Virus record (IMG/VR): IMGVR_UViG_3300012348_000120
Source: a virus
Taxonomy: Duplodnaviria; Heunggongvirae; Uroviricota; Caudoviricetes
DNA length: 64,000 bases
Direction: 5' to 3' (one strand)
Positions 20,387 through 60,277 of this stretch are shown piece by piece. The notes below the pieces were generated by a model, which saw only the letters and a list, made by a program, of their open reading frames with translations, was not told where the DNA came from and did no database searches. The translations under genes were made by a program, and so were the position numbers. How positions within the stretch are numbered: position 1 is the stretch's first letter; every line of letters begins with the position of its first letter.

Positions 20387-20415
20387 TGTATAGCGTGATT
20401 CGTATGAAATGTCAA
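20387..20415 (-). promoter_or_regulatory. sigma70 promoter with CGAATCA in spacer
   Basis: TTGACA-N7-CGAATCA-N3-TATACA. Confidence 0.85.
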
Positions 20416-20939
20416 GCAGCTTTGTATTCAGCAAAGAACATTTCTTTACCTTTCGCACAAAGATGGAGAGTAGAAAACCAAGAGTCAAATGACTGAATGG
20501 TTTCGTTCACCTTGAAATCTACTTCGGCAAAACGTTCTGCTTTTTTCAGATATTTGCGAACCCTTGCTTCCAGACGCACAACAGCATTTGGCTTTTGGTT
20601 GGGGGGAGAAGGACGAAACTTTTCAGCATCCTTGGTTCCACGATTGTTATTGCAAGCATAGCAAGATGCAGCAAGGTTTGCCCATTCGTTGGTTCCACCC
20701 TTTGATTTCGGAATGACATGCTCAACGGTCACACTGTTGCGTTTGCCATGAACTTCATGCATATAGCAACCGCAGAAGCAGCATTTCCAGTTCTGTGCTT
20801 CTGCGAGACGAGTGCGAAGATAAACCCATTTAGATTGTTTGTGTGCCAACCGAGCGGTCAACGAGTCTTCATAAATTTCACGAAAATATTTCGCATCATT
20901 CGGAGTCTCGTTGATGATCGGCATAACGTCAAACTTCAT
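20412..20939 (-). CDS. HNH endonuclease
   Basis: CCFCG...TVEHVIPKSKGG...NLAASCYACN. Confidence 0.9.
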   Translation of the reverse strand: MKFDVMPIINETPNDAKYFREIYEDSLTARLAHKQSKWVYLRTRLAEAQNWKCCFCGCYMHEVHGKRNSVTVEHVIPKSKGGTNEWANLAASCYACNNNRGTKDAEKFRPSPPNQKPNAVVRLEARVRKYLKKAERFAEVDFKVNETIQSFDSWFSTLHLCAKGKEMFFAEYKAA

Positions 20940-20966
20940 ATCGGCTTCCTCTCTGGATACAGATTA

Positions 20967-20995
20967 TGTATACAGTGATTCGTTCCGAATGTCAA
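20967..20995 (-). promoter_or_regulatory. sigma70 promoter with CGAATCA in spacer
   Basis: TTGACA-N7-CGAATCA-N3-TATACA. Confidence 0.85.
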
Positions 20996-21273
20996 GCATG
21001 TTTTGACGCAGAATCAAGCAGCGCCATTAGAGTTTCACCCATAAATCGCTGACTATCAGCAAGGTCCATATTCAGCAGTTCGCTGTCATTACCTTGAATT
21101 TGTTTACGAGAGTATTCAATATCTGTAGCCAGAACTTCAAGGTCTTCAGCAAGATTTGGATGCAGATATGAAACTGCACGAGCGATTGATTGAAGTTCAA
21201 ATGTCGCAGTTTGAATACGACTGTGAGAGGCAGAAGTATTCCGCCAAAGTTCTTCGCGTTTCGCATCCATCAT
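20992..21273 (-). CDS. hypothetical protein
   Basis: 93 aa. Confidence 0.5.
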   Translation of the reverse strand: MMDAKREELWRNTSASHSRIQTATFELQSIARAVSYLHPNLAEDLEVLATDIEYSRKQIQGNDSELLNMDLADSQRFMGETLMALLDSASKHA

Positions 21274-21430
21274 TCCGCAACCTCTCGCTCTACAACCTCA
21301 TCACCGTCTTCAAGGTATTCATCACCCATATATTCAGAATACGAGCGATACTTTTTGTTGAAAACGACTTTCATTTTTCTGACTACAACTTCAACGTAGC
21401 CATGGTCAGACGAGGGGACTAAAACTTTCA

Positions 21431-21712
21431 TCACAGGGGTCCATACATAAGTTCGTTACGGGCTTTTTCCCAATCAAATTCTTCAATCGCACGTTCACCA
21501 GCGATGGGAGAATACTTACCCCAAGTGAATACGCGGTAGACTTTCACGTATTCCTCAAGACCTTTCATCTTGGAACGATCACTCGCCCAACCAACAGCAC
21601 GAGTCACATCGGCAGTGGTGCCAAACACACCATCATAGTCCATCACGACATAACCAACGAAATCGGTGGTTTCAGCGATGTTGCGGATTTCAAGAGGGAA
21701 GGTCATTGGCAT
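21431..21712 (-). CDS. hypothetical protein
   Basis: 93 aa, behind a promoter and RBS. Confidence 0.55.
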   Translation of the reverse strand: MPMTFPLEIRNIAETTDFVGYVVMDYDGVFGTTADVTRAVGWASDRSKMKGLEEYVKVYRVFTWGKYSPIAGERAIEEFDWEKARNELMYGPL

Positions 21713-21738
21713 ATCTCCTTGTTGCCGATTACATAGTA

Positions 21739-21767
21739 TGTGTATCTGATTCGCGGGCGTTTGTCAA
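21739..21767 (-). promoter_or_regulatory. sigma70 promoter with CGAATCA in spacer
   Basis: TTGACA-N8-CGAATCA-N2-TACACA. Confidence 0.75.
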
Positions 21768-22042
21768 GAAGAATATAGAAAAGATTCCAGAGGAATGTAT
21801 ACGCGACCTGGAATTTCCATTCGCTTCACGCATTCCTCTTGTTCTTCTGTTTCGGGCGCAAAGACAAGATCGTCAATCATAAAATGACCAGCAGCACCAT
21901 CCCACACGCCACGAAACATCAAACCATTTTTGGCTTTCATAATCAGCAACGGCTGATCTTCATCATCTGTTTTTGGAAACTCTGAGATGGGACGCATATA
22001 GTCCAGATAGTTGATACGCACTTCGTCCATTTCGTCTCTCAA
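21764..22042 (-). CDS. hypothetical protein
   Basis: 92 aa. Confidence 0.5.
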   Translation of the reverse strand: MRDEMDEVRINYLDYMRPISEFPKTDDEDQPLLIMKAKNGLMFRGVWDGAAGHFMIDDLVFAPETEEQEECVKRMEIPGRVYIPLESFLYSS

Positions 22043-22404
22043 TACATCAGGTAGGTTACAGCTTTGATATTCGTTTCGGCTTCACCGATTTCAAGTGCGA
22101 CTTTCTTTGCTTCTTCTACCGCTTCAAGGAACGTAAGAGCATGAACCTTGTAAGGAGTCATCCGACCAACAAACTTCACTTCCCACACCGACTTGGTAAC
22201 AACGGGTTCTGCTTTTACTTCTTTGACTTCATGCAGAACACTCACGTTGCGACGACCCATCTTCTCCCAATGAAAGAAGTAATCTTCTTTCATTTTTTCA
22301 CAGAAAATCTCAAACGCTTCATGTTCAGTAGCAGCTTCAATTTCAAGATCAATCGACATTCCGCTCACCGGACCATATTCACCGACGACAAGATACTTGG
22401 TCAT
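22039..22404 (-). CDS. hypothetical protein
   Basis: 121 aa. Confidence 0.55.
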   Translation of the reverse strand: MTKYLVVGEYGPVSGMSIDLEIEAATEHEAFEIFCEKMKEDYFFHWEKMGRRNVSVLHEVKEVKAEPVVTKSVWEVKFVGRMTPYKVHALTFLEAVEEAKKVALEIGEAETNIKAVTYLMY

Positions 22405-22431
22405 TTCTCTCTCCTTGCTGACTACAGATTA

Positions 22432-22460
22432 TGTATACACTGATTCGTTCAGATTGTCAA
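22432..22460 (-). promoter_or_regulatory. sigma70 promoter with CGAATCA in spacer
   Basis: TTGACA-N7-CGAATCA-N3-TATACA. Confidence 0.85.
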
Positions 22461-22723
22461 GCCCAAGATACTTCAATCCACACATCAACAAACTGTAGGT
22501 CTTCACTTCGTGTGTTCACATTGTAACCAAGTTCAATAAGTTTTGTGTTCACCTCTGGGTTTTTGAAACGAGCCGAATACCCATGAAAAATACAATAATC
22601 ATATGGAACACGAATGTCTGTCTTTCCTTTGGCAGCAGCACTGCGAATCATTTTATCCAGTTCATCCAACACTTTTTCAATTGGAGCACCAGCAATTTCT
22701 TTTGCTTCTTTTGCACTAATCAT
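22457..22723 (-). CDS. hypothetical protein
   Basis: 88 aa. Confidence 0.5.
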   Translation of the reverse strand: MISAKEAKEIAGAPIEKVLDELDKMIRSAAAKGKTDIRVPYDYCIFHGYSARFKNPEVNTKLIELGYNVNTRSEDLQFVDVWIEVSWA

Positions 22724-22734
22724 ATCTTTTCCTT

Positions 22735-23016
22735 TCAGAGAAACATAGAGCGTTCAATGGTGATCGGAGCACCCAAGTCTCGCACACGAAACTGTTTACG
22801 AACCGAGTAACCACGTTCTTCGCAGAAGTTTTTATACCACTGTTCTTCATCGACACACTGTTCATTGGCAGCTTCTAATGTCGTAAACGACCATTTCAGT
22901 TGCCAGTTGTTGTCTGGGTCAATACCGTTGAGACGATAGTGTGCCTTATGTTCTTCGGGCAAATCTTCCAGATATTCAACAACAAAGCGATTGACAGTTT
23001 CAGTGTAGGTATTCAT
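22735..23016 (-). CDS. hypothetical protein
   Basis: 93 aa. Confidence 0.5.
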   Translation of the reverse strand: MNTYTETVNRFVVEYLEDLPEEHKAHYRLNGIDPDNNWQLKWSFTTLEAANEQCVDEEQWYKNFCEERGYSVRKQFRVRDLGAPITIERSMFL

Positions 23017-23237
23017 TCTGTTTTCCTCTCAACGATCCCAGTTGTTTTCATTCAACCATTCTTGAACAGTTCCCCAAACTACCAGATGAGTCAGAACCCC
23101 GATGGCGATTGCCCAGTTGGGGAGAACAGCGGGGGCAAAAACCCACACGATGCCACCAAGAAAGAAGGGAGCAAGAATGGTCCAAAACATATAAAAAGCA
23201 AAGCGCATCTATGTTTCTCCTTAGTGGCTACAGATTA

Positions 23238-23266
23238 TGTATACAGTGATTCGTCACCACTGTCAA
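23238..23266 (-). promoter_or_regulatory. sigma70 promoter with CGAATCA in spacer
   Basis: TTGACA-N7-CGAATCA-N3-TATACA. Confidence 0.85.
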
Positions 23267-23268
23267 CA

Positions 23269-23529
23269 TCAAAAGTAGTTTCGTTCCCAGTATTCTTCAT
23301 TTTCTTTTTCAATACCAACCCATTCGTCAATGAGTTCAAGAACTGTGTCAGGTGAAACTATATATGGTTCTTCCCAATCGGGGTCTTCGTGTGACGAATA
23401 CACAGAGCGACCGCCATACTGAACATGAAAGCATTCACTTTCATCTTCATAGATGCGAATGCCACCCCATTCTTCGTAGGTGTTCCAGTTTGCTTCATAT
23501 ACAAGATTCATGTTTGTTTCCTCGTTCAC
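23269..23529 (-). CDS. hypothetical protein
   Basis: 86 aa acidic ORF. Confidence 0.5.
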   Translation of the reverse strand: MNEETNMNLVYEANWNTYEEWGGIRIYEDESECFHVQYGGRSVYSSHEDPDWEEPYIVSPDTVLELIDEWVGIEKENEEYWERNYF

Positions 23530-23779
23530 AAGTAATGTATATAGAAGTTTACAAAGAAAGTCAAATAAAAAAGGCGACCGAAGCCGCCTTTTCTTTTATT
23601 TTGTAAGCAACTCATAGATGTCATCTGGTAAAATGCCATCGTGTTTCCCAAGAATGGAGACTGCATTTACTGCCGCAAGTTTTCTATTGCGTTCATCGTT
23701 TGCTTTCCATACCGCCGCCATCCAAGTAACATACTCTTTTGAAGAAGTATCAGAAAGGTCTTTTGGCGCTGAAGGAAAA

Positions 23780-25198
23780 TCACTCATAGCGAGACACCAT
23801 TTCAGGTTCAGGTTTGACAACCGCACGTTCACGGATTGCTTCAAACGTATCTTCAAGAATAAGATCACCGTTTTCATACACTGTGCGAAGAACTTTGTCT
23901 TCTTCACGAGCGTTCTTTTCTTCTACAGTTCTGAAACCGCAGCTTCCAAGACCGCATTCATGAACCAGTTCAAGGCGTCCTTTCTTAGAAAGTTTACCTT
24001 TGTCTGTGATAGGGTCTTTGTAAACATCAACCCAAACACCGTTCACAAGTGCAGCAGAACACTTCATCGCAAACTTCTGATCATCGCGTTGTGGAGCACC
24101 AAGTAGAGCACCACCCATACCAAAGGCAACGTTGTCAGCACAGAAACCATTTTCTTTCAGGCTTTCAAGAATAGCCTTGACACTATCTGCATTGATGCCA
24201 TCACCTTGAATGATGCGAACATGATTTAGAAGTTTGTAACCTTTTGCGTTTACAGTTGAACCAAAAGTCTTGTCCAACAGTTTTGCAACTTGTGTAACAA
24301 CCTCAACTGGATCACCAGAGTCGGGACGGACAACAAGAGTTGCACCAGACTTGATTACATCTTCGCGAAGTTCACCACCCCACAGGTTCTCAACAGCGTT
24401 GAAAATATCATAGCTGTCAGAAACAACAGCAAGGATTGACCCAGGTTTAGCGAACTGTTTCAGCATATTTTTGTATGCTTTGACTTCGTTTTCACGACCC
24501 CAAGAGGTGATGGTGCTATGTTCAGCCGCAGGAATAGAGAACCCTGCCATTGGCATTTTGTAGTAGCGTTTTGCGCCAACTACAGCAGCAATAGTATCAG
24601 TCCCCATAAAGCTGACCAAGTGAGCCATACCGCCAAGAGTGGCAGATTCATGCGAAGATGTTCCTCGCGCACCGAAGTCGTGTAGTTTGAAGTTGAGTCC
24701 AGCGAGATCGCCACCAGTTTCAACCATGAACTTCTGAATGATTTTCTTGATTTCACGGCTGGTAGTGGCAACAGTGGTTGGATACCAGATTGCACGAAGC
24801 AATGCAGTTTCCAAGTAGGTGGTCAACCAGAAACACTTTGGGTCAGTGTTTTCAACAGTAACCATTGCGTTGTGAACAGGAATCACAGTTCCTTCAGGCG
24901 CGGCTTTGATGCGAATAGGAAGTTTTCCGCCAAGTTCCTTGACGATGTATTCCCAACCTTCGCGGTTGAATGGTTCACCATGTGCAGTCCAGATTTCTTC
25001 TGCTTCATCAACGTCTGCCATCGTGATTGGTTCAAGCATATATTCTTTGATGAACGCTTGTAGACCGAAGAACACCAGTTCTTTGTATTTTCCGCCACGG
25101 CTTTCAATGTAGCTGAATACAGTTTCTGTATTTTCAGGGTATTGAACGAACATTGACGCTTTGTAGCTGTCGGTGTTTAGTAGTAGATTACTTTTCAT
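23780..25198 (-). CDS. nadV: nicotinamide phosphoribosyltransferase (NAMPT)
   Basis: LLLNTDSYKASM, LHDFGARG, IPAAEHSTITSWG, RPDSGDP, IIQGDGI. Confidence 0.95.
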   Translation of the reverse strand: MKSNLLLNTDSYKASMFVQYPENTETVFSYIESRGGKYKELVFFGLQAFIKEYMLEPITMADVDEAEEIWTAHGEPFNREGWEYIVKELGGKLPIRIKAAPEGTVIPVHNAMVTVENTDPKCFWLTTYLETALLRAIWYPTTVATTSREIKKIIQKFMVETGGDLAGLNFKLHDFGARGTSSHESATLGGMAHLVSFMGTDTIAAVVGAKRYYKMPMAGFSIPAAEHSTITSWGRENEVKAYKNMLKQFAKPGSILAVVSDSYDIFNAVENLWGGELREDVIKSGATLVVRPDSGDPVEVVTQVAKLLDKTFGSTVNAKGYKLLNHVRIIQGDGINADSVKAILESLKENGFCADNVAFGMGGALLGAPQRDDQKFAMKCSAALVNGVWVDVYKDPITDKGKLSKKGRLELVHECGLGSCGFRTVEEKNAREEDKVLRTVYENGDLILEDTFEAIRERAVVKPEPEMVSRYE

Positions 25199-25224
25199 AA
25201 TAGAACTCCTCTATTGTTAGATTG

Positions 25225-25241
25225 CCAAACTCTCTGTTTGG
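25225..25241 (-). promoter_or_regulatory. leader hairpin CCAAAC-AGAGA-GTTTGG upstream of nadV
   Basis: Perfect 6-bp stem, 26 nt upstream of the ATG. Confidence 0.6.
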
Positions 25242-25282
25242 ACTTGATGACATTACCACGTCATTGTGATAATGTCAATAGG

Positions 25283-25591
25283 TTATGCAGCGGTTGGTCT
25301 GGATTCTTGCCATTCTTTTGTCCACCTTGGCAACTCACGATACCCAACAGGCCAATCATTTAGCCCAATATCAGTTAGTTTGCCGCAGCATGGACACTTG
25401 AACGAAACCGCTGGATCACGACCACCCCAAGTTGGGCTATCGTTTCCTTGAAAATATCGTAGATCATCAAACTCAAGTTCAAGCAATGCTTCACAGCCAT
25501 TGCCGCTATTGCCCCAACCATTACAGCGATGCTGTAACGACCAAGTATTTTTTCCGTTTTTTCCCGCTTCAAGAATCTTCATTTTACTCAC
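25283..25591 (-). CDS. hypothetical Zn-ribbon protein
   Basis: C..C and CPCC motifs. Confidence 0.55.
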   Translation of the reverse strand: MSKMKILEAGKNGKNTWSLQHRCNGWGNSGNGCEALLELEFDDLRYFQGNDSPTWGGRDPAVSFKCPCCGKLTDIGLNDWPVGYRELPRWTKEWQESRPTAA

Positions 25592-26679
25592 CCGATGTTG
25601 ATAAAGTTGTCAATGATGTGAAAGTGATCTTCAAACATCTTTTCTTGCTTCACTTGGTTGAAGGGAACCCAGAATGCTTTCTCAGCATCATCGGAGCCTT
25701 TCACCTTTGGCAACTCGCCTACACCAAGATCAATATGGAATGCTTGCGTAATGGTGCGACCACGAGAAGAACGGTTCGGAGCATCAAAAGTCTTGGAACC
25801 CTTGATAGAACCTTTCAGCACTGGGACAGGAACCTTGATTTTGGTTTCTTCTTTCAATTCACGAATAGCACCATCAAGCATAGTTTCATCTTGGTTCAGG
25901 AAACCGCCAGGGAGCGCCCATTGGCCCTTGCCAGGCATATCCCCACGCTTAACCAGCAGGATGTGGCCAGACTGCACTACAACGGCGTCTACGGTCATAA
26001 AGGTAGGCGGGAAAGGTGCAGCCTTCCATGCTTCCTTATATTTCTTGACCATCTGGTATTCTTGGAATAGAGTCTCAAACCAAGGAGAAACCACACTGTC
26101 TTTCATAATAATAGAGTGCATAGTCTCTACTGCCCGTTTGTTCATAGTTTTAGCAACAAATTGTTCATAAATTTTATGAATAACAGTTGGAAGAATAGTT
26201 GAACTATCAGGAGAAGATGCAAACAGCGCCTCACGAATGTCAGTAGCGTTGATTCCACCGACATCAGGAACTTCAACATGGTTCTTCCATCGAGGGAAGA
26301 TGTTCAAGTAGTAGCTGGTGCTGTCTTTTGAGTGACCAATCAGGCCAACGTCTTGTGCATGAGGAATAGTTTCGTCAACAATCTTCTGGATTGCATTGAC
26401 CCATTTGTTGTCATCATACGGAAAGTCCGAGACGGGAACAATGTGAAGTCGCTTCAACCTTTCATGAAATTTTGCCTTTCCAGTTTCTTCTGGAAACACG
26501 GCTTCAATCATAGCCTTGCGTTCTTGGAATGTAAAGGGATTACGAATATTACGAGCAGCGAAACTTGAGCCTACGACTACAACGACTTCTTTTGCTTGTT
26601 CAAGTGCAGCATCGATAACTGCTTTGTGTCCATTGTGAAACGGCTGGAACCGACCGATAAAAACGAGTGCGTCTCGCAT
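25588..26679 (-). CDS. nadM: bifunctional NMN adenylyltransferase / ADP-ribose pyrophosphatase (NadM-Nudix)
   Basis: IGRFQPFHNGH; Nudix box GGFLNQDETMLDGAIRELKEET. Confidence 0.93.
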   Translation of the reverse strand: MRDALVFIGRFQPFHNGHKAVIDAALEQAKEVVVVVGSSFAARNIRNPFTFQERKAMIEAVFPEETGKAKFHERLKRLHIVPVSDFPYDDNKWVNAIQKIVDETIPHAQDVGLIGHSKDSTSYYLNIFPRWKNHVEVPDVGGINATDIREALFASSPDSSTILPTVIHKIYEQFVAKTMNKRAVETMHSIIMKDSVVSPWFETLFQEYQMVKKYKEAWKAAPFPPTFMTVDAVVVQSGHILLVKRGDMPGKGQWALPGGFLNQDETMLDGAIRELKEETKIKVPVPVLKGSIKGSKTFDAPNRSSRGRTITQAFHIDLGVGELPKVKGSDDAEKAFWVPFNQVKQEKMFEDHFHIIDNFINIG

Positions 26680-26703
26680 TGCAAAAACTCCTTTTGCTGT
26701 TAT

Positions 26704-26726
26704 GTGAAGGACTCTCTGTCCTTCAC
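26704..26726 (-). promoter_or_regulatory. leader hairpin GTGAAGGAC-AGAGA-GTCCTTCAC upstream of nadM
   Basis: Perfect 9-bp stem, 24 nt upstream of the ATG. Confidence 0.65.
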
Positions 26727-26763
26727 TATTATTTATACTTTATTTTCAAATATTTGTCAAGCA

Positions 26764-27774
26764 TCAATCTTCATATTCGAACTCTTTTTCACGAGCATTC
26801 ATCACATCAATAGAAATTTTGTTGAGTAGACGATACTCTGCATATTCTTCTGACTGCGAACCTTGATGCATAACAGGCAACCAAACTTTGCGAGTTACTT
26901 CCATAAAGCTGTTTACCATCTTACCAAGAAGTGCTTCCCGCATCAGTTCGTATGCACCTTCTTTGTTTCCAGAAATAAACATTTCCAGAATAGGGTCAGA
27001 AAAGTTTACAATATGTGCAAACCCACCACCAGCATAACCACTGCCAAATGCATGACCAAACGTGTCAGACAGAATGTGATCACGACTTCCTTCAAAGAAA
27101 TACTGACGCATAAACAGGTCATTTAGAATGTCACGCTTTTTTTGTGCGTTTTCGTCATCGTCTTTGATGATGTCATTCACAGAGCCGTGTCGTGGAGATT
27201 GTTTGTTGGCACAAAACTCCATATAATCAGGAATCAAACCAGCGAGTTTTGCGTAGGTGACATTCTTGAAATAGTATTGATCAGACTCAAATCCTTCTGG
27301 GATTTCTGCATCCTTGCGCTTATACCAATCAAAAGTCCATTCATTCCACAGACGATCAACCACATCTTTGCGAATCATAGTAAAGAAAACTTCTTTATAT
27401 TGTGGTTGACCTTCATATCCACGAAGTGGATTGTTCACACGAAGGCGTTTTTCATGAACAACTTCAAAGAACGTGTCAATATCAAAGCCTTCACGTTTTA
27501 CAGCGATGTCATGATATTTGTTCTCGCCAACTTCCATTTCAATCAGATTTTTACGAACACCGTCAACAATCAAGTCAAGAGCAACACCATTGCATTCTTC
27601 GCCCGCGCCGTAATCATTGTATTTCGCACGAAACGGAATGATGACAGGATTATATAGTGCCGTAGAATAGCAAAAACTATCACGATACGATTCCACAATA
27701 GGGAATACGTATACTTCTTCACCAGAAATGATAGGTAGACTCGTCAGGCCACAAGTTGCGTTCCAGCATCCCAT
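26764..27774 (-). CDS. hypothetical protein
   Basis: 336 aa; MGCWNATCGLTSLPI start. Confidence 0.65.
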   Translation of the reverse strand: MGCWNATCGLTSLPIISGEEVYVFPIVESYRDSFCYSTALYNPVIIPFRAKYNDYGAGEECNGVALDLIVDGVRKNLIEMEVGENKYHDIAVKREGFDIDTFFEVVHEKRLRVNNPLRGYEGQPQYKEVFFTMIRKDVVDRLWNEWTFDWYKRKDAEIPEGFESDQYYFKNVTYAKLAGLIPDYMEFCANKQSPRHGSVNDIIKDDDENAQKKRDILNDLFMRQYFFEGSRDHILSDTFGHAFGSGYAGGGFAHIVNFSDPILEMFISGNKEGAYELMREALLGKMVNSFMEVTRKVWLPVMHQGSQSEEYAEYRLLNKISIDVMNAREKEFEYED

Positions 27775-27785
27775 TTTATATTCCT

Positions 27786-28361
27786 TTATTTGTTGTTACG
27801 GATTGCAGTTGATAGATTGATAGTCAGGTTGATGCCACTACTCACATCTATCCAAAACTGAAGATGTTCATCGGAATCATAGAAAGAGTTGTTGATTGCA
27901 GTTTCGAGCAGTTTCAGCATAAAGTCAAGGTTTTTTTCTGCAAATGTGTTCACAGAAACATCGTATAGATACATACTTTCTTCCATAACCTTTGCATAGT
28001 TTATGACAGTAGTATGAGTAGAAGCCAATCCATGCAAGTCTGCACGAATCATCCAACGAGTTGCTTCATCCATATCGGGCGTGATTTCATGATGTGCGGT
28101 TGCCAGAATGATTTCGGCAGCTTTTGTTCTGTTTGGATAGTATTTCAGCAAGAAGTGAGCAGAACGTTCTTCTTTCAATGGGTCTTTATCGTATACAACA
28201 TCATGAAACAACACGGCATAATCCAAATCCTCATCGTATGGAGCATTCATACGCTCTAAAAACATATAGCATTCTTGAATATGATCTGGGTTATGGTATG
28301 CAAGATTTTTGGCATACCATAACTCAGCAAATTGATTATTACCTAACCTAGACCATTGCAT
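27786..28361 (-). CDS. HD-superfamily phosphohydrolase
   Basis: YHNPDHI...LFHDVVYD...ATAHH...ADL. Confidence 0.7.
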   Translation of the reverse strand: MQWSRLGNNQFAELWYAKNLAYHNPDHIQECYMFLERMNAPYDEDLDYAVLFHDVVYDKDPLKEERSAHFLLKYYPNRTKAAEIILATAHHEITPDMDEATRWMIRADLHGLASTHTTVINYAKVMEESMYLYDVSVNTFAEKNLDFMLKLLETAINNSFYDSDEHLQFWIDVSSGINLTINLSTAIRNNK

Positions 28362-28875
28362 TTTTCAGTTCCTTGCCACTACCATACATATCAAAAATAC
28401 CGACCTGATCAAACCCTTCATCCAGTTCGGGTTCAACATACGTATCCATCATACGATTGATGATGTCAACAGGAATGGTCTTGCCAGGCCGACCAGCCAG
28501 ACGTTTCTGCCATTCAGCATAATCTTCATCAGTGGCGGGCGGTTCAATACAATCACACACAACGCGGTAGCCCGCTTGTTTCATACGATTGATGATTTTA
28601 CGGCGCTTACCAACAGCGAGGTTCGTTTGATCCCAGATGATATCGCGCTTGTTACGAATAGCTTCATCAAGCCACTCGTTCATTTGCTTTGTGGCTTTGT
28701 CAATATACTTGTCAAATGCCATATCATACGACCATCCCATCTTGGCACCCCATTCTTCAATGAGGTTGTCGGTGCTGTAAACAAACGCATTCGGATAAAT
28801 CCGATAAAGCAACTGAACGCGAGTGCTCTTGCCGCTGCCGGGGTAGCCGACCATAACAATACAGACAGGTTTCAT
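28348..28875 (-). CDS. P-loop kinase (AAA_33, Pnk-like)
   Basis: GYPGSGKST, DQTNL..KRR. Confidence 0.8.
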   Translation of the reverse strand: MKPVCIVMVGYPGSGKSTRVQLLYRIYPNAFVYSTDNLIEEWGAKMGWSYDMAFDKYIDKATKQMNEWLDEAIRNKRDIIWDQTNLAVGKRRKIINRMKQAGYRVVCDCIEPPATDEDYAEWQKRLAGRPGKTIPVDIINRMMDTYVEPELDEGFDQVGIFDMYGSGKELKNAMV

Positions 28876-29072
28876 CGAATCGTCTCCATTACGTTTCCGC
28901 TTACACGATAATATACGCTATATTCTTCGGTTTGGCAAGACCAAAAATCTTCATATTTGGTCAAAGCCTCATTTTCATTTTCAGCCATCACGATACGAAT
29001 GTCCTGAAACTCTTTGGTGTCGCTCATATAATCAGTGCGATACACAGTGCCTTTGACCAAATACGGAATCAT
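28872..29072 (-). CDS. hypothetical protein
   Basis: 66 aa, coupled. Confidence 0.45.
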   Translation of the reverse strand: MIPYLVKGTVYRTDYMSDTKEFQDIRIVMAENENEALTKYEDFWSCQTEEYSVYYRVSGNVMETIR

Positions 29073-29329
29073 AGTGCAGTTTCTTTCATATAACGAGTTG
29101 CGATTTCAAATGCTTCTTCCAACGTAAAACGTGTAGAAGCGATAAACTCTGGTGTTCGGCTGGAAGGCATCGCTTCAAAGATACGATGCAATCCTTTATC
29201 CAACACAGTTGTTTCAAATACTTTCACACACCATTTATCTTGGCCACGTTTTTCAATAGTGACATCATCGCCAAGATCAAATCGTGTTGCCAGTTTTAGC
29301 ATATCATTTGGAGTCATTCTCCCACCCAC
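29069..29329 (-). CDS. hypothetical protein
   Basis: 86 aa, coupled. Confidence 0.45.
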   Translation of the reverse strand: MGGRMTPNDMLKLATRFDLGDDVTIEKRGQDKWCVKVFETTVLDKGLHRIFEAMPSSRTPEFIASTRFTLEEAFEIATRYMKETAL

Positions 29330-29541
29330 TTTCCACGAAGAACAGCAAAAGGACCAACGTAAAGATAGGTAAACAGAACAGTTTGGCCTTCGCCCAGTTC
29401 CGTCACTTTACTGAAATATGGCTGAATAAGGTTGTTGTGCCGCCATGGAGTTTTGGATGCCCAATCGTCCGACCAGAAAAACTTGATGATCCGTTCCTTG
29501 GATTTCAGTTCAAACAGTTCGGTTGCCATCACTTCCCCCAA
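29314..29541 (-). CDS. hypothetical protein
   Basis: 75 aa. Confidence 0.4.
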   Translation of the reverse strand: MGEVMATELFELKSKERIIKFFWSDDWASKTPWRHNNLIQPYFSKVTELGEGQTVLFTYLYVGPFAVLRGKWVGE

Positions 29542-29897
29542 TGACCGATGAAGTTGTTCATGTATTCAAAGATATTTTCGGCACCAACGGGGTTCTTGGA
29601 ATGAACCATAAATGCAAACTTCTCAGGAAGTTCTTCAACTCCATCCATCACCATTTCACTGATGCGCTGTGCGATTTCGTAACCAGTCGGTTCGTTTTCG
29701 CCAAGGTCATGATCAAAACTGATCATTACAGGCATACCGTAAGCCAGAATGATATTCTCAGTTTCATACCAGTTACGAGCAATAATCCAATCATGAACAG
29801 TATACATATATTGTTCAGTGAGATTATTCGCCCAAGTCACATCGCTTGGAACTCGCTCATCATCGATGAACAGATTGTAAGTCATTTCATTCTCCAT
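29529..29897 (-). CDS. receiver-like (cyclic-phosphate-processing REC-type) domain protein
   Basis: LFIDDER...SFDHDLG...TGYEIA...HSKNPVG. Confidence 0.7.
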   Translation of the reverse strand: MENEMTYNLFIDDERVPSDVTWANNLTEQYMYTVHDWIIARNWYETENIILAYGMPVMISFDHDLGENEPTGYEIAQRISEMVMDGVEELPEKFAFMVHSKNPVGAENIFEYMNNFIGHWGK

Positions 29898-30162
29898 ATA
29901 TCAATACAAATGCAGCATACTCTGATTCGTTTTGAAAGTCAAGCCAAAACCTGTCCTTTTTTTCATTGAACGTGCATCCATATTGTTTGAGTTCGTTGTT
30001 CAAAAATTTTACAGAAAACCCATCGTCCCTTGTATACCCACTGTCTGGATTGGAAGAATACGTATCTTCCAGATAGTTCATAAAGTTCACCCAATAGACG
30101 GGACACAAATATAATGTGTTACCAAGGTCAACTTTAATGGACATTGATCTTAGCCCCCACAA
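29887..30162 (-). CDS. hypothetical protein
   Basis: 91 aa. Confidence 0.5.
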   Translation of the reverse strand: MWGLRSMSIKVDLGNTLYLCPVYWVNFMNYLEDTYSSNPDSGYTRDDGFSVKFLNNELKQYGCTFNEKKDRFWLDFQNESEYAAFVLIYGE

Positions 30163-33251: not shown

Positions 33252-33280
33252 TGTATATATTGATTCGCCTTGAATGTCAA
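33252..33280 (-). promoter_or_regulatory. sigma70 promoter with CGAATCA in spacer
   Basis: TTGACA-N7-CGAATCA-N3-TATACA. Confidence 0.85.
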
Positions 33281-33655: not shown

Positions 33656-33684
33656 CTTATACAGTGATTCGGAGAGAATGTCAA
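33656..33684 (-). promoter_or_regulatory. sigma70 promoter with CGAATCA in spacer
   Basis: TTGACA-N7-CGAATCA-N3-TATAAG. Confidence 0.8.
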
Positions 33685-34857: not shown

Positions 34858-34886
34858 TGTATAAGCTGATTCGCTACGATTGTCAA
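34858..34886 (-). promoter_or_regulatory. sigma70 promoter with CGAATCA in spacer
   Basis: TTGACA-N7-CGAATCA-N3-TATACA. Confidence 0.85.
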
Positions 34887-36445: not shown

Positions 36446-36474
36446 TGTATATAGTGATTCGAAGGGATTGTCAA
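36446..36474 (-). promoter_or_regulatory. sigma70 promoter with CGAATCA in spacer
   Basis: TTGACA-N7-CGAATCA-N3-TATACA. Confidence 0.85.
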
Positions 36475-46034: not shown

Positions 46035-46036
46035 TA

Positions 46037-46065
46037 GTTATAGAGTGATTCGCAGGATTTGTCAA
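46037..46065 (-). promoter_or_regulatory. sigma70 promoter with CGAATCA in spacer
   Basis: TTGACA-N7-CGAATCA-N3-TATAAC. Confidence 0.85.
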
Positions 46066-46229: not shown

Positions 46230-46258
46230 TGTATATAGTGATTCGGTTGTTTTGTCAA
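46230..46258 (-). promoter_or_regulatory. sigma70 promoter with CGAATCA in spacer
   Basis: TTGACA-N7-CGAATCA-N3-TATACA. Confidence 0.85.
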
Positions 46259-46653: not shown

Positions 46654-47277
46654 TTATGAGTTGAACATATTATGATTCGCGGTGTTTGTCAAGTGATTTT
46701 TTATAATTTCGATTACATCGTTGGAATACAAAACATCATAATGATCCTCATCAATCATGACGTAATCAATATCTGAACGACACATCATACTATGTTTTGT
46801 CACCACACCATCATTTGGCAAAATATGTATTGGATGGTGACCACGTGTAGTCACTATCTGTGTCCAAGGCACATCAATGTGTATTAGATTAGATGAATAT
46901 ATTGGCGGGCTACTTGGGCATATATCACTGAACAACGCATACGATGGAAACATTTGTCTAAAAAAGAAAGCGAGTGCTGATCCACCATATGGAGTTGATA
47001 TGGTTACTGCTCCTTTTACCTTATTTTTGAAATGATGATATAGATGAACGCTATACAATCCACCAAGAGAGTGAGCAACAAAAAACACTTCTTTTAGGTG
47101 TGACATCTCATTCTTCATTTGCTCCAAGTTACAAGCAAACGAATTTCTACTATCGTAGTCAAAGTGCGTATAAGAGTGAGGTTGCAAATGTGCTATAATA
47201 TGCGACCAACAAGAAGACGACTGATTTGCTCCATGTATGAATACTAAATGCGGAATCGTCGTTGGTAGTTCTGTCAT
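46654..47277 (-). CDS. alpha/beta hydrolase
   Basis: FIHGAN, AHSLGG nucleophile elbow, NDGVV, DHYD. Confidence 0.85.
   Translation of the reverse strand: MTELPTTIPHLVFIHGANQSSSCWSHIIAHLQPHSYTHFDYDSRNSFACNLEQMKNEMSHLKEVFFVAHSLGGLYSVHLYHHFKNKVKGAVTISTPYGGSALAFFFRQMFPSYALFSDICPSSPPIYSSNLIHIDVPWTQIVTTRGHHPIHILPNDGVVTKHSMMCRSDIDYVMIDEDHYDVLYSNDVIEIIKNHLTNTANHNMFNS
46664..46692 (-). promoter_or_regulatory. sigma70 promoter with CGAATCA in spacer
   Basis: TTGACA-N7-CGAATCA-N3-TATGTT. Confidence 0.75.
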
Positions 47278-52611: not shown

Positions 52612-52773
52612 TCATCCCTTGTCAAAATCGTCTTGGGTCTTATTACCCTTGCGCAAATCTACCTTATCATCACGGCGTTGCGCTTTTTTGCTCTTTCCAT
52701 GAGCACCACTTTTTTTCGTAATCAGGTGTTGCACGAAGGGATTACGAGCCTTCGGAAGTTTTTTTCGTTTCAT
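52612..52773 (-). CDS. small basic protein (not in ORF track)
   Basis: MKRKKLPKARNPFVQHLITKKSGAHGKSKKAQRRDDKV..., 53 aa, AGGAG RBS. Confidence 0.7.
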   Translation of the reverse strand: MKRKKLPKARNPFVQHLITKKSGAHGKSKKAQRRDDKVDLRKGNKTQDDFDKG

Positions 52774-53051
52774 TTTCAATCTCCTGAATTTCTACCTTTG
52801 CTTCTAACTTGTCGACTTCATAGGCATGAACAATTGCCTTCGCATCTTCTTCTTTTGTGGTGATTGCCACTATCTCATCGTTCACAATCACATAGTATGT
52901 CATTCGGATTTCTCCGTTTCATATGGAATGAACTCAACCGTCCACTTTCCATCTGACCAAGTTTTCAGATGCTTCATCCAATATTTGAGTTTGCCATACT
53001 TCTTCTGATGAAGGCGAGTAAGGTAAGAAAGGTTTCCACTGTGAATGTTGT

Positions 53052-53279
53052 TCATTCTTTGCTCCAATCATAGACATCATCAAAGTCAAGTCCCTGAGAC
53101 TTGAGGTCGCTGGCGATTTTCTTGACTTCTTCGAGATCACCGTCAAAACCAAGGTCTTCACGAATAGCTTCTTCGGTTTCACCATGGAAGAACCAGCAGA
53201 CAGCTTCTTTGAAAATCTTGGTCATTTCGTCTCTCCCTCTTACTTGTATAGATATACACTGATTCGTATGAGAAGTCAA
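53052..53279 (-). CDS. hypothetical protein
   Basis: True start probably at MTKIFKEAV. Confidence 0.45.
   Translation of the reverse strand: MTSHTNQCISIQVRGRDEMTKIFKEAVCWFFHGETEEAIREDLGFDGDLEEVKKIASDLKSQGLDFDDVYDWSKE
53251..53279 (-). promoter_or_regulatory. sigma70 promoter with CGAATCA in spacer
   Basis: TTGACT-N7-CGAATCA-N3-TATATC. Confidence 0.8.
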
Positions 53280-53576: not shown

Positions 53577-53605
53577 TTTATATACTGATTCGTGGAAAGA
53601 GTCAA
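53577..53605 (-). promoter_or_regulatory. sigma70 promoter with CGAATCA in spacer
   Basis: TTGACT-N7-CGAATCA-N3-TATAAA. Confidence 0.85.
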
Positions 53606-57382: not shown

Positions 57383-57474
57383 TGGCGGTGAGTAAGGGAT
57401 TTGAACCCTTGGGAGAACTTACATTCTCCGACAGTTTAGCAAACTGCTGGCATAAACCACTCGCCCAACTCACC
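57383..57474 (-). tRNA. tRNA-Ser(GCU)
   Basis: Type II cloverleaf, G73, CCA. Confidence 0.95.
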
Positions 57475-57475
57475 A

Positions 57476-57670: not shown

Positions 57671-57713
57671 TACGTTCTCCTTACGGGTTGCTAGGCACTA
57701 TGCCTATGAAATA

Positions 57714-57788
57714 TGGCGAGAGAGGTAGGAATTGAACCCACGACACCGAGTTTTGGAGACTCGTGTTCTACCACTGAACTACACTCCC
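57714..57788 (-). tRNA. tRNA-Trp(CCA)
   Basis: Cloverleaf, CCA. Confidence 0.93.
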
Positions 57789-57796
57789 ACTTATAG

Positions 57797-57876
57797 TGGT
57801 ATCAATCCCCTTACCCCGATGATGCTATCTTTGGACAACAGTATCGCTACTGCTTTTCTATGATGGATAGATTGAT
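57797..57876 (-). ncRNA. CCA-ended non-canonical RNA
   Basis: ATCAATC/GATTGAT-A-CCA stem; gcagta-GCGA-tactgt hairpin; no T loop. Confidence 0.5.
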
Positions 57877-57884
57877 TACATATT

Positions 57885-57960
57885 TGGTGAATCGGGTGGG
57901 ATTCGAACCCACGTATCCCGATTAAAAGTCGGGTGCTAAAACCAACTCAGCTACCGATCC
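57885..57960 (-). tRNA. tRNA-Lys(UUU)
   Basis: Cloverleaf, CCA. Confidence 0.95.
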
Positions 57961-58149
57961 ATAAACTTTACTGGTTCTCACATCTTGAACCGAATGTTGT
58001 CTAGCATTGTGACCCCGACCCCCCGCTACTTGCGGGATGGAAGTATCTAGATCAAACTCGCATTACCTTCACCGACTAGCTTATCACTGCCAATGCACTG
58101 TGGTCAGACTCATCATCACTTCGCGGTGTATTTCTACACAAGGTAAACT

Positions 58150-58226
58150 TGGCACTTCCGACAGGATTCGAACCTGTAACCTTTCGCTTCGTAGGCGAAT
58201 GCTCTATCCAGTTGAGCTACGGAAGT
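58150..58226 (-). tRNA. tRNA-Arg(ACG)
   Basis: Cloverleaf, CCA. Confidence 0.95.
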
Positions 58227-58279
58227 ATATTCAGTCGGAATTTCTTTTAACGTGCTGCCGAATCAGACACAGGTATTTT

Positions 58280-58363
58280 TGGTGGGAGTGGAAGGAATCG
58301 AACCTACCGTGCGTTACCGCGAGGGATTTACAATCCCCGGCCTCACCTTGAGGCGACACTCCC
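58280..58363 (-). tRNA. tRNA-Tyr(GUA)
   Basis: Type II cloverleaf, CCA. Confidence 0.93.
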
Positions 58364-58368
58364 AATTA

Positions 58369-58497
58369 TGGTGCTGGATTTTTTCGGCGTCAACACTACA
58401 CTTGAGGAAGACATTCCCAGTAGAGAATGTCTATCACTTGTCAACTGCTGACGTTTTGACTTTACATGGATTAGAATAAACCGCTTCCACAACCAGC
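58369..58497 (-). ncRNA. CCA-ended non-canonical RNA
   Basis: GCTGG/CCAGC-A-CCA stem; agacattc/gaatgtct and gtcaa/ttgac hairpins. Confidence 0.55.
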
Positions 58498-58503
58498 TTA
58501 GAT

Positions 58504-58550
58504 GACCGACCTGTAATATGGTGACTTGACCATATCAGGGAGAGTCGGTC
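58504..58550. other. stable intergenic hairpin
   Basis: gaccgac/gtcggtc outer stem and atatgg/ccatat inner stem. Confidence 0.5.
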
Positions 58551-58558
58551 TTAATATT

Positions 58559-58647
58559 TGGAGGACGTGGTGTGATTCGAACACACGGTATAACTTTCGT
58601 TAGCCGGATTTGCAATCCGGTGCCTTGAACCGCTCGGCCACACGTCC
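58559..58647 (-). tRNA. tRNA-Cys(GCA) with long variable arm
   Basis: U73, ccgga-tt-GCA-aa-tccgg, variable hairpin taac-GAAA-gtta. Confidence 0.9.
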
Positions 58648-58665
58648 ATTTTATCTCTTGCATTA

Positions 58666-58694
58666 TGTATAACCTGATTCGCATCAAGAGTCAA
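58666..58694 (-). promoter_or_regulatory. sigma70 promoter with CGAATCA in spacer (inside the tRNA array)
   Basis: TTGACT-N7-CGAATCA-N3-TATACA. Confidence 0.85.
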
Positions 58695-58703
58695 CAACTA
58701 TTT

Positions 58704-58793
58704 TGGCGGATGGTGAGGGATTCGAACCCCCGCTACACTTTCATGTAGCCGCCCTTTCCAGGGGCGGATAATAAACCACTCTAACAACCATCC
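58704..58793 (-). tRNA. tRNA-Ser(GGA)
   Basis: Type II cloverleaf, G73, CCA. Confidence 0.95.
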
Positions 58794-58809
58794 ATTGTTT
58801 AGGGTATTT

Positions 58810-58888
58810 TGGTCCTGCGGGAAGGATTCGAACCTTGCTCTCTCTGATCCACAATCAGATGTGCTAACCGTTGACACTACTTCGCAGG
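58810..58888 (-). tRNA. tRNA-His(GUG), A73, no G-1
   Basis: tctga-tt-GTG-ga-tcaga; slightly irregular acceptor/D junction. Confidence 0.85.
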
Positions 58889-58895
58889 ATTATTT

Positions 58896-58978
58896 TGGCA
58901 TACGTGGGAGGAATCGAACCCCTTGTGGACGGTTTTGGAGGCCGTTGTCATTACCAAATAACTTTACACTCCACGTAT
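58896..58978 (-). tRNA. second tRNA-Trp(CCA)-like, irregular
   Basis: About 7 extra nt between acceptor and D arm; one mismatch in the anticodon stem; CCA. Confidence 0.65.
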
Positions 58979-58985
58979 ATATTTT

Positions 58986-59063
<78 letters not shown>

Positions 59064-59074
59064 ACATTTTAGTT

Positions 59075-59194
59075 TGGTGCGTATGGCTGGAGTTGAACCA
59101 GCATGTCACCATGACTCATTCAACCACCGTTGAACTTATGGATTTGAACCACCTTACGTCCGTCGACGTGCGTCTACCATTTCGCCACATACGC
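59075..59194 (-). ncRNA. tRNA-Leu-like RNA without anticodon loop, expanded variable region
   Basis: GCGTATG/CATACGC-A-CCA; D arm TGGCGAAATGGTAGACGC; ACGTC-GACG-GACGT; extra T-like arm. Confidence 0.8.
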
Positions 59195-59201
59195 AAATAT
59201 T

Positions 59202-59276
59202 TGGTTGCCCCTACTGGATTTGAACCAGTGACCTATCCCTTATCAGGGGATTGCTCTACCACTGAGCTAAGAGGCA
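59202..59276 (-). tRNA. tRNA-Ile(GAU)
   Basis: Cloverleaf, CCA. Confidence 0.95.
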
Positions 59277-59288
59277 ATATTCATTATT

Positions 59289-59378
59289 TGGAAGATAGTA
59301 TCAAGGGTCGCAAATTCCTTGTGTAGCCCACTTCAAAGCAAACTTAATTACCCAAGCTACTGCGATAGAATACTATCA
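59289..59378 (-). ncRNA. CCA-ended non-canonical RNA
   Basis: GATAGTAT/ATACTATC-TT-CCA; gtagc/gctac and caagg/ccttg stems. Confidence 0.5.
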
Positions 59379-59387
59379 TCAAAATAA

Positions 59388-59473
59388 TGGTGTGGGGGGC
59401 TGGATTCGAACCAGCGTTGCTTTTCAGCGCCTGATTTACAGTCAGGTGGTTTCAACCACTCACCCACCCCCAC
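59388..59473 (-). tRNA. second tRNA-Tyr(GUA)
   Basis: Type II cloverleaf, CCA. Confidence 0.95.
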
Positions 59474-59477
59474 AAGA

Positions 59478-59572
59478 ACACAGTGACACTAACCGCTCTG
59501 ACCACTGAGCTACATTGCAGCCATACGCGCCGCAATGGATGGCTTTGAACCACCGACCTGTTGAGTATGTGT
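59478..59572 (-). ncRNA. circularly permuted tRNA-like RNA (YrlA/Y-RNA-like architecture)
   Basis: Order is T arm, looped acceptor stem, D arm; the 5' and 3' ends pair. Confidence 0.7.
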
Positions 59573-59579
59573 ATATTTT

Positions 59580-59668
59580 GTAATGAGTGCTCTATCTGGA
59601 TTCGAACCCTCGGACAGCATCAGCCCTACACCTACCGATCTGCTGATCGGAAAATAGGAGATCATTAC
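59580..59668 (-). ncRNA. T-loop-containing structured RNA
   Basis: GTAATGA/TCATTAC ends; ccgatc-agca-gatcgg; gg-TTCGAAT-cc. Confidence 0.5.
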
Positions 59669-59673
59669 ATAGC

Positions 59674-59756
59674 CCGCACAACCACGAATCGAACGTGTTT
59701 TCGTATCTGAATACATATGGACCGACCACCAAGTAGCTACTATTGGTTGTTGTGCG
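59674..59756 (-). ncRNA. tRNA-like RNA with 8-bp acceptor and tetraloop in the anticodon position
   Basis: CGCACAAC/GTTGTGCG; cacg-TTCGATT-cgtg; gtat-tcag-atac; no CCA. Confidence 0.55.
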
Positions 59757-59801
59757 ATTGATGTTAAGGTTTACCTTGGGTCATTTTAACTTGACATCAA
59801 T

Positions 59802-59936
59802 ATTTCTGTTTTCATCTACACAAAGGATGGATTCGAACCATCGTTTATCCGCACAGGGAATCGAACCCCATCAACTCGCTACCACTCAATGGATAGGTTG
59901 CGCCACCAGCGACCTTGTGTATGTGAAAACAGAAAT
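59802..59936 (-). ncRNA. long-stem RNA with two T-arm modules
   Basis: 14-bp terminal stem; gggg-TTCGATT-ccct and gatgg-TTCGAAT-ccatc. Confidence 0.65.
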
Positions 59937-60004
59937 TATTTCATTCTGTTTTTTTCTAAATTGTCAAAGAGCAATGAAGCATCGCTTCGTTTTCTTACAT
60001 TGTC

Positions 60005-60033
60005 TTTATAGACTGATTCGCTTATAAAGTCAA
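60005..60033 (-). promoter_or_regulatory. sigma70 promoter with CGAATCA at the head of the tRNA array
   Basis: TTGACT-N7-CGAATCA-N3-TATAAA. Confidence 0.85.
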
Positions 60034-60048
60034 CATCTTTTTTCAATA

Positions 60049-60082
60049 AAAAACCCTCCGAAGATTTTCATCTTGGAGGGTT
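60049..60082 (-). terminator. intrinsic terminator
   Basis: aaccctcc-aagat-gaaa-atctt-c-ggagggtt followed by a T-run. Confidence 0.8.
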
Positions 60083-60116
60083 CCTGTGTTCGTTAGAACT
60101 ATATGGATATGTAAGT

Positions 60117-60212
60117 TTACATTCCCATACCAAGACCCTCGCAGCCGCTATACATAAAGCGACCACACCAAGTGCGGCGAATAATCATCTTATGTGTAGA
60201 AGCGGTTTTCAT
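60117..60212 (-). CDS. 31-aa small ORF in a mini transcription unit
   Basis: MKTASTHKMIIRRTWCGRFMYSGCEGLGMGM; AAAGGA RBS; own promoter and terminator. Confidence 0.45.
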   Translation of the reverse strand: MKTASTHKMIIRRTWCGRFMYSGCEGLGMGM

Positions 60213-60248
60213 TGAAAGTCTTAGTCCTTTGTTTATTTCTATTCTCTA

Positions 60249-60277
60249 TATATAACACTATCAGTGTGATTCGTCAA
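60249..60277 (-). promoter_or_regulatory. sigma70 promoter with CGAATCA overlapping the -35 box
   Basis: TTGACG-aatca..-TATATA, 17-nt spacer. Confidence 0.7.

Follow-up and report, generated by a model that had tools for sequence, protein, structure and literature searches.

A sigma70-type promoter class with a GcrA-like GANTC box at a fixed spacer position in a group of uncultured tailed phages

Introduction

What reads a seven-base element that recurs, always at the same place, between the −35 and −10 hexamers of one phage promoter after another? The question is raised by a 64,000-nt stretch of the IMG/VR record IMGVR_UViG_3300012348_000120 (Caudoviricetes), referred to throughout as the window, in which repeated promoters of sigma70 type carry the heptamer CGAATCA (TGATTCG on the other strand) in their spacers. 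An original prediction for this stretch had taken TGATTCG for the preferred site of the sigma70 cofactor GcrA, built around GANTC, the sequence in which the alphaproteobacterial enzyme CcrM makes N6-methyladenine (m6A), and had proposed that early phage transcription reads both. Among activators GcrA is unusual: it is bound to sigma70, reads DNA methylation and is known only from cell-cycle genes of the host. Here we describe the motif, its fixed position and strand, the pattern of purifying selection on it, its spread in related phages and the indirect signs of an alphaproteobacterial host.

The window was compared with an IMG/VR relative, G001, which is collinear with it at 82–92% DNA identity, and with the more distant relatives G002, G003 (complete), G004 and G005, whose ClpA-like protein is only 68–71% identical. 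Counts given below for five sequences refer to the window and four relatives, which are not phylogenetically independent.

The promoter class in the window

The pattern TTGACW-N7-CGAATCA occurs in 16 exact copies, 16 of 16 on the minus strand; shuffled versions of the window give 0.03 on average and never more than 1. TGATTCG as such is found 30 times where 12 are expected. Three variants in spacing or box bring the total to about 19 box promoters (table 1). Every position at which the original prediction had placed TGATTCG does carry it on the plus strand, and its N8/N2 version at 21747 and its variants at 60267 and 2865 are as described; one exact copy, at 29923, had escaped it. Its estimate of chance occurrence, 0.003, was a rough figure beside the 0.03 of the shuffles, but the conclusion that the class lies far beyond chance holds. 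Maximal-order Markov k-mer enrichment, the wrong tool for this motif, did not recover it.

How is the box placed within these promoters? A −35 and a −10 of sigma70 type with a 16–18 bp spacer are present (TTGACW-N17-TATAMA in the 16 copies and the three variants), and the aligned window copies give as full consensus an A-rich upstream tract followed by TTGACA-N7-CGAATCA-N3-TATACA-TAATCTGTA, which is longer than the one in the original prediction. Counted from the −10 hexamer set as −12 to −7, the GANTC core occupies −21 to −17, with its centre at −19. This centre holds for 14 of the 22 strong sigma70-like sites in the window, and the same peak is seen in four relatives. CGAATCA is on the non-template strand and TGATTCG on the template strand; all 19 boxes of the window read TGATTCG except that at 2865, which reads TGATTCT.

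A Shine–Dalgarno (SD) sequence and a start codon follow 21–29 nt past the −10 of box promoters with open reading frames (ORFs). The genes downstream are small ORFs of 46–175 codons, or tRNAs, with tRNA-Cys and its array directly downstream of the copy at 58675, so that the small accessory genes and tRNA array named in the original prediction are indeed those served. Because the promoter at 60005–60033 has no SD or start codon downstream, its product is probably an RNA or a tRNA-region transcript. A conserved TGTA lies 6–9 nt past the −10, at the expected start site of the window promoters. The leaders are about 18–22 nt long, and transcripts of the class would share nearly identical first bases.

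Match to the GcrA site

How closely does the box resemble the site that GcrA is known to read? For strong GcrA sites of Caulobacter, MEME gave TGATTCG as the consensus, with YGAKTCK as its broader form (Haakonsen et al., PMC4647560), and in crystals of the GcrA DNA-binding domain on TGATTCG seven of seven bases are contacted (Wu et al., PMC5887438). On the identity of the heptamer as GcrA's preferred motif, then, the original prediction agrees with both studies. GcrA boxes lying 5′ to a transcription start site (TSS) centre at −20±1 or −30±2, on the spacer face opposite polymerase (PMC9976885); a further published window extends from +5 to +30 relative to the TSS. The non-template strand of the scaffold used in cryo-electron microscopy of the GcrA activation complex (GcrA-TACU) reads TTGACA-N6-CG(m6A)ATCC-N4-TATAAT (PMC9976885). 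The phage CGAATCA is on the same strand as this element and 1 bp nearer the −10. Counted from the −10, its centre at −19 would lie within the −20±1 class, and the 60267 variant, at about −28, would lie within the −30±2 class.

The flanks of the core were compared with those of background GANTC heptamers in the five sequences. YGAKTCK fits 96 of 100 boxes against 24.6% of the background, and the narrower YGAKTCG fits 82 of 100 against 8.4%. On the template strand YGAKTCK is found in 91 of the 100; a few are flipped (CGATTCG, TGATTCG on the top strand) and match the consensus all the same. The GANTC core is invariant across boxes. Of a methylation site that GcrA reads one should expect just this: a palindromic core that does not vary, between bases that vary only within the GcrA rule.

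Does the phage bring a GcrA of its own? Neither Pfam PF07750, run on five related records, nor a hidden Markov model built from nine GcrA proteins, run against the ORFs of the window and four relatives, gave a phage homologue below E = 0.05. A reader of GcrA type would therefore have to be the host's.

Selection on the heptamer

To what extent is the heptamer conserved for itself? Substitutions were counted in 15 orthologous promoter pairs of the window and G001 in which the box is kept in both. The heptamer has none in 105 positions and the −35 hexamer none in 90, compared with 30/105 in N7, 11/45 in N3 and 5/90 in the −10 hexamer; for N7 versus heptamer, Fisher p = 1.7e-10. That the remaining spacer bases vary freely, as originally stated, is thus confirmed in orthologues. 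The heptamer is under purifying selection, with a constraint equal to that on the −35 hexamer, and so is not simply carried along in a repeated cassette.

In the sixteenth pair (20396) the G001 orthologue, at about 97.1 kb, has no box and reads TTGACA-N13-TGTATATA instead. It is a natural box-minus allele of the promoter that serves the same gene as window 20387–20415.

Spread among related phages

The box is surrounded by two promoter architectures. G004 and G005 share the N7 architecture of the window, with TATAAA as −10; the −10 hexamers of this type mostly end in A (TATACA, TATAAA). G002 and G003 mostly have TTGACA-N6-(C/A)GAATC(G/A)-TGT-TATATT, with a 16-bp spacer, an extended −10 and T at −7 (−7T); among promoters of the G003 type, −7T is present in 18 of 20 and the TG of the extended −10 in 16 of 20. 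The fixed part is the distance from box to −10, since the GANTC centre is at −19 in all five sequences. G003 had at one stage seemed free of the class, an artefact of requiring N7 in a genome that uses N6.

An exact-pattern scan of IMG/VR returned at least 119 stretches; among the matches listed, most belong to this phage group. G028, a 145-kb, 95%-complete T4-like contig, has four copies. In G027, a 78-kb T4-like contig, a box promoter stands at the 5′ edge of an alpha-type transfer-messenger RNA (tmRNA) gene, which it may drive. Some relatives have a double GANTC, in which GAATC or GATTC follows directly on the −35 (TTGACA-GAATC) and the usual box lies 8 nt downstream; there are three such promoters among 18 in G003, against a chance expectation of about 0.4% per promoter.

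The window itself has a G+C content of about 41% and 20 tRNAs, and its proteins include a ClpA-like ATPase, NAMPT, a NadR-like protein and tail-fibre proteins. No cultured phage gave a near-identity match to 12 kb of it. Public runs holding at least half of window positions 20300–30000 are labelled freshwater or microbial-mat metagenome, while G004 was found in marine and seawater runs.

Signals of the host

If GcrA were the reader, the host would have to be one that makes it. What do the sequences say of the host? The relatives carry two-piece tmRNAs of the alpha type. Permuted tmRNAs were detected by ARAGORN in G003, G004 and G005. The Rfam model alpha_tmRNA scores 88–126 bits in G002, G003, G005, G027 and G028 (gathering score 50), and of 14 control genomes only Caulobacter matches it. 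In the N7-type clades (window, G001, G004, G005), −7T is present in 13 of 80 box promoters; published values are 90–99% of promoters outside the Alphaproteobacteria and 30–43% within (PMC7703639, PMC8407463).

Among 185,579 GTDB species genomes, close matches to the ClpA-like protein (66–70% identity) were confined to two contigs of ‘Alphaproteobacteria bacterium SI073_bin67’, a metagenome-assembled genome (MAG) that encodes GcrA, as do 20 of 20 sampled relatives. These phage-like contigs (L139, L207) are 2.3 and 3.8 kb long, and since fragments of 34% GC are here binned with contigs of 59–60% GC, the link is a weak one: either they hint at a host or they were wrongly binned. Taken together, the tmRNAs, the scarce −7T, the co-binning with the MAG and the lack of a phage GcrA make a circumstantial case for an alphaproteobacterial host. 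A host outside this class, which by the terms of the original prediction would have overturned it, is not what the alpha-type tmRNAs, the −7T usage and the GcrA-bearing MAG point to.

Methyltransferases and the methyl mark

Which enzyme might write the mark? The original prediction had suggested looking for gcrA and ccrM in the rest of the genome. No GcrA homologue was found in the window and its relatives, as given above. Methyltransferases of the beta class (N6/N4) are encoded by G001, G004 and G005, and among solved structures CcrM is their best match. The enzyme of G001 has a large insertion. The residues with which CcrM recognizes its bases (Arg44, Pro45, loop 45) are not kept in the phage enzymes. 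The attempt to infer GANTC specificity from them consequently failed, and such specificity is unsupported.

No PF01555 or PF02086 methyltransferase was found in G002 or G003. Since both have the motif, a co-occurrence of motif and methyltransferase was dropped. A weak methyltransferase match in G003 proved to be a radical-SAM protein, one of two adjacent radical-SAM/SPASM proteins. All five sequences have moderately fewer GANTC sites than expected.

The structural block and late-type boxes

The original prediction had the class missing from the structural block at 3.7–17 kb; the gap is in fact somewhat wider, with no box promoter between 2885 and 20387 (a structural block of about 2.9–20.4 kb). 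Boxes of T4-late-like type, GATAAATA, are present in this block. The window has 12 of them, all on the minus (coding) strand, against 3.1 expected. They interleave with the box promoters, and the copy at 60294–60301 precedes the 60267 variant by about 20 bp. TATAAATA, tried as a late box, is not enriched (5 in the window against 2.7 expected).

Table 1. Positions of box promoters, late-type boxes, double-GANTC promoters and related genes. Records other than the window are given by their handles.
Feature	Record	Position	Strand	Sequence	Downstream gene or remark
Box promoter	window	20387–20415	−	TTGACA-N7-CGAATCA-N3-TATACA	50-aa ORF from 20358; box lost in G001 orthologue
Box promoter	window	20967–20995	−	−10 TATACA	175-aa ORF from 20939
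N8/N2 variant	window	21739–21767	−	TTGACA-N8-CGAATCA-N2-TACACA	
Box promoter	window	22432–22460	−	−10 TATACA	121-aa ORF
Box promoter	window	23238–23266	−	−10 TATACA	59-aa ORF
Box promoter	window	29914–29942	−	TTGACT, −10 TATGCT	118-aa ORF; new relative to the original prediction
Box promoter	window	33252–33280	−	−10 TATACA	70-aa ORF
Box promoter	window	33656–33684	−	−10 TATAAG	47-aa ORF
Box promoter	window	34858–34886	−	−10 TATACA	120-aa ORF
Box promoter	window	36446–36474	−	−10 TATACA	81-aa ORF
Box promoter	window	46037–46065	−	−10 TATAAC	112-aa ORF
Box promoter	window	46230–46258	−	−10 TATACA	46-aa ORF
Box promoter	window	46664–46692	−	−10 TATGTT	74-aa ORF
Box promoter	window	53251–53279	−	TTGACT, −10 TATATC	57-aa ORF
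Box promoter	window	53577–53605	−	TTGACTC, −10 TATAAA	87-aa ORF; TTGACTC contains a second GANTC (GACTC) centred near −31
Box promoter	window	58666–58694	−	TTGACTC, −10 TATACA	directly 5′ of tRNA-Cys (58559–58647) and tRNA array
Box promoter	window	60005–60033	−	TTGACT, −10 TATAAA	no SD or start codon found
−35-overlapping variant	window	60249–60277	−	box as TTGACGAATCA, GAATC centre about −28; TATATA at spacer 17	kept in G001
Variant	window	2857–2885	−	TTGACT-N8-AGAATCA-N2-TATTAT	AGAATCA is TGATTCT on the other strand, within YGAKTCK
Late-type box	window	54, 1727, 3700, 11796, 17049, 38755, 42193, 43821, 47624, 49020, 53714, 60294	−	GATAAATA	
Double-GANTC promoters	G003	80841, 169062, 337735			
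Double-GANTC promoter	G002	38986			
Double-GANTC promoter	G029	49035			
Box promoter	G027	53074–53098	−		5′ edge of tmRNA gene
tmRNA gene, alpha type	G027	52749–53102	−		
Beta-class methyltransferase	G001	L083:349–1800			483 aa
Beta-class methyltransferase	G004	L081:1339–2205			288 aa
Beta-class methyltransferase	G005	L082			288 aa
Radical-SAM/SPASM protein	G003	L084:1165–2592			475 aa
Radical-SAM/SPASM protein	G003	L084:2579–3604			341 aa

Discussion

What, then, reads the box? We think it rather probable that the host sigma70–GcrA holoenzyme reads these early promoters through the spacer box. The GcrA part of the original prediction is supported in this sense by motif, position, strand and flank rule, with host support that is circumstantial. 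In the mechanism we favour, the host would be an alphaproteobacterium whose polymerase carries GcrA on domain 2 of sigma70. Host CcrM would N6-methylate the adenines of GANTC, a task that may in some relatives fall to the phage's beta-class methyltransferase. The GcrA DNA-binding domain would dock on the box, at the spacer face opposite polymerase, and would raise both polymerase binding and open-complex formation, aiding −10 hexamers that mostly lack −7T (TATACA, TATAAA). As a result, the many small accessory genes and the tRNAs of the array would be strongly expressed as soon as infection begins. Such expression would require GcrA in the host and would depend on how the phage DNA is methylated. 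That these promoters are methylated, bound by GcrA and activated is what we infer.

Several points weigh against this reading. The box does not simply compensate for a weak −10, because promoters of the G003 type pair it with an extended −10 and −7T. Two related contigs (fragments of 50 kb and 127 kb) have no box, and the class was not found in the cultured phages Atu_ph07, Phosso, PA5oct, Melnitz, Cr30 and HTVC008M, four of which (Atu_ph07, Phosso, Cr30 and HTVC008M) infect Alphaproteobacteria; none of the six is therefore usable as a model. Fast replication may leave phage DNA poorly methylated if the phage brings no enzyme, and G003, which is complete, has neither a PF01555 nor a PF02086 protein. 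tmRNA type and −7T usage are signals of lineage and not proof of a host, and the link to the MAG is one of co-binning. It was in Caulobacter that the extended motif was defined, and in Brevundimonas subvibrioides it was not seen (PMC7987155). Finally, a published study that searched phage genomes with a matrix for GcrA sites obtained no signal (PMC9437464).

Could a phage protein be the reader? CGAATCA might be bound by a phage-encoded and possibly virion-delivered protein, either an activator or a repressor that sits in the spacer and shuts early genes off. Phage-specific, strongly conserved promoter elements do typify phage-encoded regulators; among the matches listed, the class is confined to one uncultured group and distant T4-like relatives; and promoters of the G003 type, with extended −10 and −7T, should be strong unaided, as fits a shut-off operator. 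On the other hand, perfect sigma70 promoters before small accessory genes and tRNAs look immediate-early, firing before phage proteins exist, and the match to the GcrA optimum would then be a coincidence in seven bases, position and strand. An invariant palindromic GANTC, flanks bound by YGAKTCK and occasional flips also fit a methylation site better than an arbitrary operator, and we regard a phage protein as an unlikely reader. Might GANTC instead be a methylation mark that works without GcrA? m6A in the spacer, made by host CcrM or a phage enzyme, would alter the binding of RNA polymerase or nucleoid proteins, distinguish fully methylated parental DNA from hemi- or unmethylated, newly replicated DNA and switch early genes off once replication has occurred. 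Promoters of mobile elements are known to be sensitive to methylation, as in IS10, P1 cre and Mu mom. The invariance of the core, the beta-class enzymes of G001, G004 and G005, the genome-wide shortage of GANTC and the frequency of GANTC methyltransferases in alphaproteobacterial phages (PMC5537653) are all consistent with such a mark. A bare mark would have no need of conserved flanks, yet the boxes keep YGAKTCK (96 of 100 against 24.6%); the phage enzymes lack the CcrM recognition residues, and G002 and G003 lack such enzymes altogether. We give this explanation little credence. Both it and a phage-encoded reader are weakened by the flank rule and by the match in seven bases, position and strand.

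It is very improbable, in our judgement, that the heptamer is a functionless passenger of a duplicated promoter–leader cassette spread by recombination, in the manner of promoter-early-stem-loop (PeSL) cassettes, or a contact for a polymerase from outside the Alphaproteobacteria. The entire cassette is indeed repeated, from an A tract resembling an upstream (UP) element through −35, box, −10 and TAATCTGTA to the short leader. But N7 and N3 diverge inside the cassette and the heptamer does not, a substitution pattern that contradicts a passenger without function; and the heptamer outlives the change of spacer from N7 to N6, with another −10 and leader, in relatives whose ClpA-like proteins are 68–71% identical. 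As for a polymerase contact, we know of no sequence-specific 7-bp contact of the sigma70 holoenzyme in the spacer, and the tmRNAs and −7T usage are signs of an alphaproteobacterial host.

If host GcrA does read these promoters, what would the phage gain? The original prediction had suggested that infection could be tied to the cell-cycle phase of the host or to the methylation state acquired in the previous one. One possibility, which we put forward tentatively, is that a widespread group of uncultured aquatic phages of about 145 to 350 kb gate their immediate-early programme on host CcrM and GcrA. The promoters would fire only in cells that have GcrA (S-phase-like cells) and only from injected DNA with m6A in GANTC, and would fall silent as replication dilutes methylation. 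Such gating would do with GcrA what lytic deferment does with CtrA, and would provide an early-to-middle switch without a phage regulator. In the relatives with their own beta-class methyltransferase, that enzyme could make host methylation unnecessary.

In full-text searches of the literature no phage promoter class carrying a GcrA box came to light, and phage use of this known host system is, we believe, likely to be new. If the reading is right, these would be the first viruses to use the GcrA methylation reader for their own transcription, and the success of infection in abundant aquatic Alphaproteobacteria would be tied to the cell-cycle state and DNA methylation of the host. The host of uncultured phages could then be predicted from sequence alone, by the combination of a GcrA box at −20 with few −7T and a tmRNA of alpha type. 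The phage promoters are also a natural set of near-consensus GcrA boxes, with N6 or N7 and with or without extended −10 and −7T, and so offer material for dissecting GcrA action. Uncultured as the phage is, the hypothesis is testable with existing Caulobacter reagents.

Comparison with known systems

The closest known systems are the GcrA/CcrM promoters of Caulobacter crescentus (PcsM; PMC9976885, PMC4647560, PMC5887438), which likewise combine a sigma70 core and a 16–17 bp spacer with a TGATTCG/YGAKTCK box. Counted from the −10, the phage box is centred at −19 where theirs is at about −20, CGAATC is on the non-template strand, and one of the rarer variants would belong to the −30±2 class. Unlike them, the phage promoters lie in a phage genome and not in a host chromosome. 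Their boxes are also far more uniform than those of the Caulobacter GcrA regulon, with about 19 near-identical copies in 64 kb and 96 of 100 fitting the extended consensus.

T4-type early promoters and PeSL cassettes offer a second likeness. There, as in the window, strong host sigma70 promoters with short leaders are repeated before many small early genes, and here too a separate T4-late-like class, GATAAATA, exists. T4 early promoters differ in having no conserved sequence-specific element at −20. In T4 middle promoters a MotA box at −30 replaces the −35; the window promoters keep an intact, unvarying TTGACA, with the conserved box at −21 to −17.

How have other phages engaged the cell-cycle regulators of such hosts? 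Alphaproteobacterial phages with CtrA sites (‘lytic deferment’, Mascolo et al. 2022, PMC9437464) likewise have the site of a master regulator of the host cell cycle in their promoter regions, by which the expression of phage genes is tied to the state of the host cell. Their motif, TTAA-N7-TTAA, is clustered in few intergenic regions, whereas the site described here is inside the core promoter and is in principle methylation-dependent. GcrA homologues are encoded by phiCbK-like phages (PMC3556154) and GANTC methyltransferases by Sinorhizobium and Paracoccus phages (PMC5537653). Those phages bring the reader or the writer of the CcrM/GcrA module; the phages described here bring the cis element.

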